Source: an uncultured archaeon
Lineage (GTDB): Archaea > Asgardarchaeota > Hermodarchaeia > Hermodarchaeales > Hermodarchaeaceae
Assembly (NCBI GenBank): GCA_964347045.1
Contig: CAYFXC010000002.1
Span: 64,001-128,000, forward strand
Direction: 5' to 3'
DNA: 64,000 nt
Positions within the stretch are counted from its first letter, which is position 1. Every line of letters begins with the position of its first letter. The notes beneath the pieces are model-generated. The model did no database searches. It was not told the origin of the DNA and was given only the letters and a program-made list of their open reading frames with translations. Positions 46,014 to 53,420 of this stretch are shown in pieces. The position numbers and the translations under genes are program-made.

Positions 46014-46124
46014 AAAAATGTATATAAAAGATAAGAGTAAAGGCGGACCATGGGTTGTCTAGGAGTGCACCAGAGGCCCGACCACACCGGTAGTCGAACC
46101 TCAGGTCCCGTCTTCCACCCATCC

Positions 46125-46268
46125 TCAACGAATGATTAGCCCAAGTGCCTGTTCAAGGCGTGGACCTGCGCGGGGATTAGTTCGACAACCAGCAAATAAT
46201 CGCTGTGCATTGGACATGCGAGCGACATTAGCGTAAAGACGAAGTTTCCGACCAATTTGTGTCTGCAT
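46125..46268 (-). CDS. unannotated small basic peptide, paralog A (47 aa)
   Basis: MQTQIGRKLRLYANVARMSNAQRLFAGCRTNPRAGPRLEQALGLIIR; GGAGGT SD; homologous to peptides at 52483 and 52982. Confidence 0.75.
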   Translation of the reverse strand: MQTQIGRKLRLYANVARMSNAQRLFAGCRTNPRAGPRLEQALGLIIR

Positions 46269-49075: not shown

Positions 49076-49272
49076 TTCCACCAATTGTAAAAAAGTATCA
49101 TAGTAAAACTTGATTTTACAAAAAAGCGAGTCTATCACATGGAAGGTCTCAATCCTATCAATTAGTTTTGTCTAATCCTCCTTTATGTGGAGGGTTTCTA
49201 ATTTCTAAAAGTGGAAACTGTTGAGTAAACTTGATAATCAGATGAAGCCCATTGATAATTGAGAAGGCGATA

Positions 49273-50244
49273 ATGGATCTCATTGATAAACGTATCATAT
49301 TCGAACTACTGATTAATTACCGTACCTCGTATCAAGCCATCGCAAAAAAACTCGACCTATCTGTTAACGCTGTGAAGAAACGTTTCGAGAAGTTAAAAAG
49401 TGTGGGAATTATCCGTGGAGGTTCTCTGGTACCTTTACCTGTGATGAAAGGAACAGAAGATTGGATGGCAATATTGCGATTAAAAGAGTCTGGTGCCTCC
49501 GATGACCTTCTGGATAGCATTGGATCTCATTTATTAGTTCAATCCGGAAGTATCTTGACAGATGGAAGCATTCTCTGTTTCGGCCATTATAGTGGAGCAC
49601 AGGATCTTCAGGAGATAGGAACATTTCTGCGTCAAGTTAAGGGTGTGACATCAGTTGAATTTCATACAATTCTGAATGCCTTAGGAAAGAAGTGTGACTT
49701 AGATGATTCAGATTTGAAAGTGCTTCGTTGTCTTCGAGAAGAACCACGAATCTCAATAAGCAAAATTACTAGGAAAACAGGTATTACTCCTCGTCGAGTA
49801 AGTCAGATTCTGAAAAAATTGATAGGAGAGAATGGAGCAGAGCCTACTTTCTATGTAAATTGGGAACCACAGGGAGGAACACAACCTGATGAAGTCAGTT
49901 TCTTAATGAGAGTTCATTGGAATCTAAATGCTGGCGGTTATACTGCCTTTATTGTTCAAATTCGTCATAAAGAAGGCATAGAAGAAGGTAAAAGAATTAC
50001 TGATATTCTGACGGCTAATTATCCATTCGAGTTTTGGTATGCATATGCTTCAGCATTTGAGCCCGTGATTTTCTGTATATTCCTCGTTGAACACATTCAT
50101 GATTCGATTGATATCATTAACATGATTAAACAAGTTCCGGAGGCGATTGACGTATATCCAATCTTTGGATATCCAACAAGAGTCTTTCGTAGTCAGGTTG
50201 ATGATTACTTTGAAAGAATCTTCAAACAGCTAGATTTTCCTTGA
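49273..50244 (+). CDS. double Lrp/AsnC-type HTH regulator
   Basis: IDKRIIFEL..NYRTSYQAIAKKL and DLKVLRCLREEPRISIS, each followed by RAM-like domain. Confidence 0.85.
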   Translation: MDLIDKRIIFELLINYRTSYQAIAKKLDLSVNAVKKRFEKLKSVGIIRGGSLVPLPVMKGTEDWMAILRLKESGASDDLLDSIGSHLLVQSGSILTDGSILCFGHYSGAQDLQEIGTFLRQVKGVTSVEFHTILNALGKKCDLDDSDLKVLRCLREEPRISISKITRKTGITPRRVSQILKKLIGENGAEPTFYVNWEPQGGTQPDEVSFLMRVHWNLNAGGYTAFIVQIRHKEGIEEGKRITDILTANYPFEFWYAYASAFEPVIFCIFLVEHIHDSIDIINMIKQVPEAIDVYPIFGYPTRVFRSQVDDYFERIFKQLDFP

Positions 50245-50452
50245 AGAGTTTTATGAATAATGCTAATTACAATTGAAAATTTCAGACAGGTTTAACACGC
50301 GTACAACATTTGCTTTGTGTTCATATTTTTATGTGACCTTTGTATAGTAGGTGTGGATTCGGACCTTTCATACGCTGCGTGGGTGGTGCGGTGATGGTTT
50401 CACGACTCCATCTACTATCGATGGCAACCTAGAGTATCTAGGCGTGGTAGAT

Positions 50453-51424
50453 ATGGACGAAATTGATAAGAATATTCTTTTTGAGCTTTCTGTTAACTAT
50501 AGGGCTTCTTATCAGACTATGGCTAAAAAGTTGAATCTTTCCGTTAATGCAATCAAGAAACGAGTTCAAAAACTTAAAGATGATGGAGTAATTCGTGGGG
50601 GGGTGTTGATTCCCTCGAATGCTATGTTGGGTATGGAAGATTGGGTCGCACTTTTACGTACCGAAGATCCGATTCCCTCTGACTCTTTCTTAGATAGTCT
50701 GGGAGAGCATGAGTACGTCAATTCTGCAAGCATTTTAACGGATGGAAGCGTTCTCTGCTTCGGGAATTATCCAGGGGCTCAAGGCCTTGAGGAAATTGGA
50801 ATGTATTTGCGAAGGACACCGGGCGTGTTATCCGTGGAGTTTCATACGATTCTAACTGAACAAGGAAAAAAATGTGAGTTATCTTTATCAGAGTTGAAGG
50901 TCCTCCAATGTTTGCGTCAAGAACCACGAATGTCTATTAGTGATTTAGCTGAGAAAACACGTCTTACCCCTCGGCGCATTCGAAAAATTATCCAAAAATT
51001 GCTAGGTGAAAATGGATCTGAACCAGGTTATTATATCGAATGGGAGCCAAGAGGCGGAAGCCGAGCTAGTGAAGTAAGTTTTAGGTTAAACGTACATTGG
51101 GATTTGAATGCCGGAGGGCATACTGCATTCGTTATTATTATCTGCCATGAGGAGGGCGTTGAATCACGGTCCAAGATTGTAAAGGTGCTCAGAGAACAGT
51201 ATCCTGTGAAATTCTGGTACGCGTATGCATCAGCCTTTGAGCCGGTCTTTTTCAGTGTCTTTGTGGTCGAGCACATGCGTGAAGCAAGCCAAATTATTGA
51301 AACGCTGCGACGGACTCCAGAAGTAATCTCAGCTAATGCAATCTATGGGTATCCTACTAAGGCATTTCTAAGCCCAATTGACAAGTATTTTATGCAGCTT
51401 TTCAAAAGGCTTGAAAGTGAATAA
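50453..51424 (+). CDS. double Lrp/AsnC-type HTH regulator (tandem paralog)
   Basis: same architecture, shared blocks SILTDGS.LCFG, FWYAYASAFEP. Confidence 0.85.
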   Translation: MDEIDKNILFELSVNYRASYQTMAKKLNLSVNAIKKRVQKLKDDGVIRGGVLIPSNAMLGMEDWVALLRTEDPIPSDSFLDSLGEHEYVNSASILTDGSVLCFGNYPGAQGLEEIGMYLRRTPGVLSVEFHTILTEQGKKCELSLSELKVLQCLRQEPRMSISDLAEKTRLTPRRIRKIIQKLLGENGSEPGYYIEWEPRGGSRASEVSFRLNVHWDLNAGGHTAFVIIICHEEGVESRSKIVKVLREQYPVKFWYAYASAFEPVFFSVFVVEHMREASQIIETLRRTPEVISANAIYGYPTKAFLSPIDKYFMQLFKRLESE

Positions 51425-52206: not shown

Positions 52207-52294
52207 CGTGAAGCCATTGGTTGTGTGGAATTGAAGCCCAAATAGCTTATCCTTTGAAGAAAAATGCCATTTCTTCAAAAAACCAAAAAAAATC

Positions 52295-52420
52295 CGCCGG
52301 GTCTTCATCGTTCCTTCCCCTCCATTTTGGCACTTCCCGGTCCAAGTTTGTATGGGTGGCATTGGACCTTTTTGGACAACGGATCCGGAGTTGTTGTCCG
52401 GTTACCGTGAAGACCCGGCG
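52295..52420 (-). other. structured 3' RNA element of peptide gene B1
   Basis: perfect 13-bp closing helix CGCCGGGTCTTCA/TGAAGACCCGGCG enclosing GGACAAC/GTTGTCC and GGTCCAA/TTGGACC hairpins, followed by T-tracts on minus strand. Confidence 0.65.
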
Positions 52421-52482
52421 TCAGTCAGCGTCCAAGGTCCGCGTCCCTGGTGTTGCAATGTCAATACCTGTTGTAAGCGTGA

Positions 52483-52626
52483 TTAGCGTCGTGAAGTGAC
52501 GATGGCGAAGTTGATTCGATCGCGGGGGGTGCCTTTGGGGTTCTTTGCACCTGTCACAGCGCGTTCTGTGACCGGCATTTTGGGAATGATATTTTTCTTG
52601 TGTCCGGTTTCTTTCTTATTGGTCAT
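52483..52626 (-). CDS. unannotated small basic peptide, paralog B1 (47 aa)
   Basis: MTNKKETGHKKNIIPKMPVTERAVTGAKNPKGTPRDRINFAIVTSRR; AGGTGAT SD. Confidence 0.8.
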   Translation of the reverse strand: MTNKKETGHKKNIIPKMPVTERAVTGAKNPKGTPRDRINFAIVTSRR

Positions 52627-52686
52627 TTTCTATCACCTTCCTGACGATGCAGGTCAAGTGTGTATAACCCTTAGATTGCCTATTAT

Positions 52687-52763
52687 TCGATGGGAGCTTG
52701 TCGGTGCAAAAATCCGACAAAATAATGAGAGTTGAACCATCTTTTGCACTAGTTAGTGCAAAA
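52687..52763 (-). promoter_or_regulatory. conserved motif GCTCCCATCGA plus palindrome TTTTGCACTA-N2-TAGTGCAAAA
   Basis: core at 52687-52697, 61 nt from ATG as in paralog A; perfect inverted repeat 52742-52763. Confidence 0.65.
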
Positions 52764-52802
52764 TTTAGATTGGTAACGGTTTTAGTTCGAGAAGGGGGTA
52801 AA

Positions 52803-52920
52803 CCGGGTCCGCAGAAGCTCCAGGCCAAAGGAGTCAGAAGGGTAGTAGGTCCGTTGCCGGATCGCTGCTACGCCGATCACCCGACAACGGATGGAGGCGA
52901 TTGGTGCTTGTGCAGACCCG
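52803..52920 (-). other. structured 3' RNA element of peptide gene B2
   Basis: CGGGTCTGCA/TGCGGACCCG closing helix and CCGTTGTCGG/CCGGCAACGG inner helix, G-U pairs on minus strand; shares CGGGTCTnCAC and ATCCGTTGTC with B1 element. Confidence 0.65.
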
Positions 52921-52981
52921 AGATATTAGGCTGAGAGGAGGACCGGATGGCTTTGTAGTCACCATGGGGATTCCTCACAGT

Positions 52982-53122
52982 CTAGCGTCGACTAAGGACC
53001 AGCATAACTGCGTACCGAGTGCGTGGTTTTGCAATCGGATGGGGGTTGCGGCAGCCAGCGATAGCTCGTTCAGAAGCCGACATTTCAGCGATTTTCTTGT
53101 GTTTATACTTGGATTTGGCCAT
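52982..53122 (-). CDS. unannotated small basic peptide, paralog B2 (46 aa)
   Basis: MAKSKYKHKKIAEMSASERAIAGCRNPHPIAKPRTRYAVMLVLSRR; GGAGG SD; C-terminal half of track ORF 52982..53284. Confidence 0.8.
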   Translation of the reverse strand: MAKSKYKHKKIAEMSASERAIAGCRNPHPIAKPRTRYAVMLVLSRR

Positions 53123-53200: not shown

Positions 53201-53219
53201 GATAAGAATCGATGGGAGC
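53201..53219 (-). promoter_or_regulatory. conserved upstream motif GCTCCCATCGATTCTTATC
   Basis: 18/19 identical to 46321-46339. Confidence 0.7.
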
Positions 53220-53420
53220 CAAGAAGTGCAAATCTTCTCGAAAGAAACCTGTGAAAGATAGTTTTTTTGAACCACATTATGCAAAATTTAGCTTTAAATT
53301 AGGAAGTTTTCCGTTTGGGTTGATTTTCACTATCAGAGTTTGTGAATAAGTTTTCTTAAGATTTTTTTGGGGTGTTCTGCGAAGGCTTTTGTGAACTCGG
53401 TTATAGTGTAACCTGGTGAG

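Follow-up and report, generated by a model that had tools for sequence, protein, structure and literature searches.

On the minus strand of an archaeal genome of 2.58 Mb and 43% G+C, within the 64,000-nt stretch of DNA analysed here (the window; G000:C2:64001-128000), two short genes, B1 and B2, encode very basic microproteins, and each is followed by an element of about 120 nt that appears to be closed by a long helix. The locus raises the question of whether these elements are structured RNAs, to which strand and to which transcript they belong, and what they might do there. In the initial annotation, they had been described as homologous multi-stem elements, inherited together with the peptide genes as cassettes, and either a non-coding RNA (ncRNA) or an element of the 3' untranslated region (3'UTR) had been envisaged.

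Two tandem cassettes and their 3' elements

The B1 and B2 cassettes stand in tandem and, at ~430 nt each, can be aligned with one another end to end, i.e., from the promoter block through the ORF to the 3' element (Table 1). The computed pI of the peptides is 11.5 for B1 and 11.1 for B2. Identities are given throughout as mean pairwise values from nine genus-1 genomes; on this scale, the B1 ORF shows period-3 conservation, with 0.77/0.84 at codon positions 1/2 and 0.52 at position 3, and the corresponding values for the B2 ORF are 0.82/0.84 and 0.50.

The distance from stop codon to helix, first put at about 60 nt, is 62 nt in B1 and 61 nt in B2. In B1, the closing helix (P1) is formed by CGCCGGGTCTTCA / TGAAGACCCGGCG, an inverted repeat with 13 perfect bp (52295-52307 with 52408-52420) exactly as annotated, and this is the sole 13-nt inverted pair of 100% identity within 2.5 kb. 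In B2, CGGGTCTGCA(C) (52920-52910) is paired with TGCGGACCCG (52813-52804), one U-G pair included. The two motifs reported as shared, CGGGTCTnCAC and ATCCGTTGTC, are indeed present in both elements. B1 ends in a T-tract, as had been stated, namely the U8 directly after P1; no T-tract follows the B2 helix.

Table 1. Coordinates of the features of the two cassettes (window positions) and of related RNAs lacking an ORF in two other species (locus positions)
Feature	Position	Strand	Description
B1 microprotein gene	52483..52626	-	47 aa, MTNKK..ERAVTGAKNP..FAIVTSRR; motif ERAxxGxxNP...SRR-stop
B2 microprotein gene	52982..53122	-	46 aa, MAKSK..ERAIAGCRNPHP..VMLVLSRR
B1 stop-to-helix spacer	52421..52482	-	62 nt, G+C-rich, moderate conservation (0.59), without TATA-like stretch
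B2 spacer	52921..52981	-	conserved post-stop motif CUGUGAGGAAUCCCC and small hairpin
B1 promoter block	52687..52765	-	GCTCCCATCGAATAATA and palindrome TTTTGCAC-N-GTGCAAAA; starts ~40 nt downstream of the B2 element
B2 promoter block	53209..53300	-	homologous to the B1 promoter block
B1-type 3' RNA domain	52295..52420	-	P1 arms 52408-52420 and 52295-52307
B1 invariant core	~52312-52384	-	AUCCGUUGUCC...GGUCC-loop-GGACC GGGAAGUGCC...UGGAGGGGAAGG
U8 tract directly after B1 P1	52285..52292	-	probable archaeal terminator, end of the conserved unit; identity 0.295 just beyond
B2-type 3' RNA domain	52803..52920	-	P1 = 52910-52920 with 52804-52813, extended by AAGCACCA/UGGAGCUU
B2 central long hairpin	52851-52890	-	CCGUUGUCGG..GAUCG / CGAUC..CCGGCAACGG
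ORF-less B1-type RNA	L093 1500-1640 (G002:C96)		behind B2-type element
ORF-less B1-type RNA	L092 350-476 (G005:C218)		behind B2-type element

Both promoter blocks carry GCTCCCATCGA and an A/T-rich box, and the loop of their palindrome is variable; the palindromic block looks like an operator read by a shared regulator. The cassettes adjoin twin genes for double-wHTH Lrp/AsnC-like regulators (window 49252-51424, plus strand), which may be the readers of this block, and in one other genome (G007, locus L035) an Lrp-like gene lies downstream of B1, too. A third paralogous microprotein, A, is encoded at 46125-46268 on the minus strand (MQTQ..AQRLFAGCRTNP..LIIR) and has the promoter motif of B1 and B2; its 3' structure (46020-46124) differs from the B1 and B2 elements and is not closed by P1, and its orthologues were seen in 3 other genomes only.

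Single-sequence folding was compared with shuffled controls, as had been suggested at the outset, and the outcome was mixed: the minus strand folds moderately better than its shuffles (z = -2.5 for B1, -3.2 for B2), but the plus strand behaves similarly (z = -2.7 and -1.8). Folding energy only moderately beats the shuffles and does not separate the strands; the real support is comparative. Because the advantage over shuffles is this modest, chance could account for the elements as seen from the window alone, so that the case rests on the homologues.

Pairing, strand and constraint among homologues

By six-frame profile search, members of the peptide family are present in 17 of the 18 other genomes searched from this family/class, at 1-6 copies each, and absent from all 282 genomes searched from 29 other families of the Asgard phylum. 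When 1.84 billion representative proteins were searched by HMM, the only matches were 19 short proteins and three long ones (1452, 1252 and 794 aa), the latter being rejected as tandem-repeat artefacts. The peptide has no match in Pfam, NCBIfam or PHROGs, searching the ESM Atlas with it gave no usable match, and a metagenome scan yielded only 5 loci, with no short transcript-like contigs among them.

Each peptide subtype retains its own 3' RNA subtype across species. Behind B1-type genes (C-terminus ..DRINFAIVTSRR), P1, CGUUG and the T-tract are found in 12 of 12 cases; B2-type genes (..TRYAVMLVLSRR) are followed by a domain that is closed by P1 and contains a long central hairpin, D-type genes (..SRRGSKW, plus a second micro-ORF) by a P1-closed domain, and C-type genes (likewise ..SRRGSKW) by a twin hairpin. 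Several of the other members, which come from both genera and have various C-termini, are again closed by GGGUCUUC/GAAGACCC; in subtype C and several genus-2 members, the 3' RNA consists of simpler hairpins only. The proposed co-inheritance of homologous structured elements and peptide genes as cassettes is, hence, seen throughout the class.

Some subtypes have additional features. The second micro-ORF of the D-type loci (L006, L030, L034, L038-L044) has 26-28 codons, is situated downstream of the first ORF and ahead of the RNA, and ends in ..F[VL]Y[ST]L[IV]L..RR-stop, resembling the C-terminus of the main peptides; a conserved GAUGAUGUCAC stands ahead of P1 at these loci. Genus-2 members (L019-L021, L047-L055) possess UAA-(N)CGCUUAC...GACACACA just past the stop, together with a GUAGGUCCA motif that also occurs in the D-type RNAs of genus 1.

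When 24 elements from five subtypes are aligned jointly (A5), the closing helix, taken as 16 bp, is 85.3% paired and shows compensatory changes on both sides in 10 of the 16 pairs; none of 500 shuffles reaches the observed covariation, and a slid partner is at most 51% paired. The B2 fold—P1, the P1 extension and a central hairpin of 15 bp, the 5' strand of which is the shared CCGUUG—is 93.7% paired in seven sequences from 7 species (alignment A6) and contains 9 compensated pairs, compared with at most 48% pairing for slid partners and 0/500 shuffles as good. The covariation check across homologues has recovered compensatory changes of the kind first noticed between B1 and B2. For B1, the inner helices predicted by RNAalifold (UCCGUU/AAUGGA and GGUCC/GGACC) are invariant among homologues, and since they never vary, comparison neither supports nor refutes the inner fold.

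Further pairings were rejected. An alternative inner hairpin of B1, GGACRA/UUGUCC, is just 74.5% paired; long-range pairing of the spacer with the interior does not rise above shuffles in the B1, B2 and D subtypes; and pairing of the B2 5'UTR with the post-stop motif looks suggestive in only 4 of the 9 genomes and is overall not significant. This motif (52958-52981, minus strand) is itself highly conserved, and those 4 genomes allow its pairing with one arm of a variable 5'UTR hairpin.

Concerning the strand, P1 contains G-U and U-G pairs at four positions, which would be A-C mismatches on the plus strand, and a covariance model of the B1 element (R1) scores its matches at 112-155 bits on the peptide strand versus 19-27 bits on the reverse; for the B1 element of the window, the scores are 145 bits (minus) and 22 bits (plus). 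Based on the G-U pairs and the model scores, the RNA is assigned to the peptide strand, in line with the strand preference that had been read from the G-U pairs.

The two elements are under different kinds of constraint. The 72-nt core of B1 has an identity of 0.854 without any period-3 pattern and is invariant in runs of 10-17 nt; its constraint equals that of the amino-acid-determining codon positions. Identity collapses to 0.295 over the 55 nt past the T-tract, at which the conserved unit, therefore, ends. The B2 element as a whole is at 0.567. It can be stated with high confidence that B1 and B2 carry paralogous structured 3'-terminal domains on the coding strand, that the pairing of P1 is kept by compensation, that the B1 unit ends at an oligo-U terminator, and that selection acts on B2 for structure and on B1 for both structure and primary sequence.

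Possible roles of the 3' domains

We read the elements as 3'UTR domains and not as free-standing ncRNA genes, because the spacer is rich in G+C, conserved and devoid of a promoter block and because conservation stops at the T-tract. Of the two options initially envisaged, the 3'UTR element is retained and the free-standing gene is not. Judged from sequence alone, the elements are located on the strand of the ORF and have compensated pairs, no promoter intervenes between ORF and element, and the B1 unit ends at a probable terminator.

The reading that we favour, at a probability of roughly 0.45, is that of a structured, protein-binding and end-protecting 3' tail of the microprotein mRNA. The domain would be co-transcribed with the upstream ORF; P1, placed beside the 3' end, would shield the short message from 3'-to-5' decay; and the invariant, largely unpaired core would form, together with the sequence-conserved P1, a specific platform for protein binding. 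Such a protein-binding 3' cap is favoured because in five subtypes and in both genera P1 is conserved not only in its pairing but also in its sequence (GGGnCUnC/GnAGnCCC), and because the B1 core is largely unpaired yet invariant. The most likely ligands would be the family's own very basic microproteins, which are preferred since they are the only candidates encoded in the cassette, and their binding to the RNA domain is proposed tentatively, from sequence features. Peptide and RNA would form a small ribonucleoprotein (RNP) that might stabilise the transcript or autoregulate it and that may persist in the form of a 3'UTR-derived RNA. Against this reading stand the simpler hairpins of subtype C and several genus-2 members, the missing T-tract of B2, the B1 inner helices, whose fold gains no support from comparison, and a peptide model of low confidence with no significant link to a nucleic-acid-binding fold. 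A more far-reaching version, which we regard as doubtful, would be that of class-specific RNP cassettes, in which a regulated promoter drives a ~46-aa microprotein that binds its own ~120-nt RNA (GGGnCUnC/GnAGnCCC stem, CGUUG core), with the released RNP acting in trans.

Two species (G002 and G005) bear on the relation between RNA and peptide. In both, a diverged B1-type RNA (54-62 bits) is found directly behind a B2-type cassette, with its core intact but without the B1 promoter or the B1 ORF, and its P1 has been rebuilt with different bases (GGGGGUUCAGGGG/CCCCUGAA..). As this RNA is kept without a B1 ORF, it has some value that is independent of a cis-encoded peptide, and binding by such a peptide is not obligatory.

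An RNA of independent value could also be a trans-acting small RNA (sRNA) derived from the 3'UTR of a dual-function transcript, in which case the domain would be released or would accumulate, and would pair with other RNAs through its invariant single-stranded segments. The long invariant runs of the B1 core, conserved at or above the level of non-synonymous sites, the terminal stem plus U-tail, which is the usual 3' end of a stable sRNA, and the retention of the RNA in G002 and G005 are all as expected for such a molecule. No target has been identified, however, and one candidate partner, the peptide-A 3' region with its complementarity to the B1 loop, is not conserved in G007; moreover, the B2-type sequence evolves fast and keeps its pairs, which fits an element read by shape better than a seed. 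We, therefore, consider a trans-acting sRNA unlikely, if the strongest of the rivals.

Somewhat less likely again is a purely cis-acting 3'-end module, i.e., a terminator combined with an exonuclease block that has no specific ligand. The 3'-terminal position, the abutment of P1 on U8, the collapse of conservation past the T-tract, and the occurrence of some 3' hairpin and T-tract in all family members would be accounted for by such a module. For a block, however, any stable helix would suffice, so that neither a 72-nt core at 0.85 identity nor a P1 whose sequence is maintained in five subtypes and both genera would be needed, and B2 is without a T-tract. The constraint on the B1 core, the stem sequence shared across subtypes and an RNA that outlives its ORF argue for a specific molecular partner over a generic terminator, as assumed for the protein-binding 3' tail.

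That the RNA represents a separate ncRNA gene, transcribed from a promoter of its own and merely adjacent to the peptide gene, is very improbable. An A/T-rich TTTTAAAAATAA is present ~22 nt upstream of the ORF-less RNAs of G002 and G005, but the normal spacer is conserved, rich in G+C and without the promoter block typical of the family, and the distance from stop to element is fixed at 61-62 nt.

The size and multi-stem shape would also suit a ribozyme, a riboswitch, a SECIS or other recoding signal, a hidden third ORF or a 5S-like RNA, all of which are barely credible here. In the Rfam search that had been recommended, the elements match no family, C/D and H/ACA sRNAs included, at the gathering threshold or at E up to 10, and the whole window has none at gathering thresholds; nothing supports a ribozyme. 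Recoding was suggested by one copy with an in-frame TGA, but this decayed member (G000:C6:44748-44882) contains TGA, TAG and TAA in frame and is a pseudogene, not a selenoprotein gene, and neither B1 nor B2 has an in-frame UGA. A reading frame is open through some D-type elements, but frames are broken or shifted among homologues, with stops and frame changes in the B1 and B2 types and no period-3 conservation in the core. A 5S-like RNA, suspected from GGUCCAUUGCCACCC/GGGAAGUG, was rejected since RF00001 does not match the elements and the genome's own, unrelated 5S rRNA (C1:236108-236226, 78.5 bits) aligns only trivially with B1.

Least credible of all is a miniature inverted-repeat mobile element (MITE), or another kind of dispersed repeat with terminal inverted repeats that only resemble a helix, for which the 13-bp terminal repeat and the size of ~120 nt would speak, but against which stand strand-specific G-U pairs, compensatory helix changes, single-copy occurrence (R1 finds a single B1-type copy in each genus-1 genome except G000, which has two, and every copy is behind a peptide gene) and confinement to peptide loci of all strong model matches and 11 of the 12 matches of an RNA-pattern search.

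Related systems and significance

Among bacterial 3'UTR-derived or dual-function sRNAs are CpxQ, SroC, RNAIII and SgrS. The domains resemble them in being structured and conserved, in making up the 3' portion of an mRNA and in a final stem plus U-tail; some of the bacterial RNAs, too, are placed behind a small ORF. The domains differ from them in their archaeal host and in belonging to a whole family of paralogous cassettes, in which every cassette has a homologous RNA subtype of its own.

In the ccaF1-CcsR system of Rhodobacter sphaeroides, the mRNA for a small basic RNA-binding protein carries structured RNAs in its 3'UTR (PMC8034643), and CcaF1 binds these RNAs of its own 3'UTR, affecting their maturation and stability (PMC8034643). 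The combination of a gene for a small basic protein with structured RNA in the mRNA 3'UTR is common to both, and by this analogy CcaF1/CcsR may be taken as a working precedent for the binding of peptide to RNA proposed here. The differences are that ccaF1-CcsR is bacterial, that CcaF1 has a DUF1127 domain, which is absent from these peptides according to Pfam, and that CcsR comprises four sRNAs, short hairpins that are cut by RNase E, in contrast to one ~120-nt domain with a terminal helix. Membership of the DUF1127/CcaF type was rejected, as 39 family members gave no Pfam match at E up to 10, including DUF1127 and the HU/IHF family PF00216. The local motif ERAxxGxRNP of the peptides recalls ERAAxxGRNP in the beta-arm of HU/IHF, and the top PDB profile match of the peptide is the HU-beta arm; at E = 0.82, however, this match is not significant, and homology to HU/IHF is not claimed. 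The AlphaFold2 model of the peptide is helical, at low confidence (pLDDT 63.5).

As to the 3' end, U-tracts are archaeal terminator signals (PMC8716108), and archaeal oligo-U terminators act together with aCPSF1 (PMC8716108, PMC7515710). The B1 unit likewise has a U-tract at its 3' end. B2 is without one, and archaeal termination is not known to require a conserved fold of 120 nt.

Knowledge of RNA-level regulation in Asgard archaea is scant. The elements described here constitute a conserved structured RNA family that is absent from Rfam and is tied to an unannotated microprotein family missed by gene callers, both families being confined to one class (Hermodarchaeota). The system is small—a 47-aa peptide and a 126-nt RNA—and is directly testable in vitro without culturing the organism.
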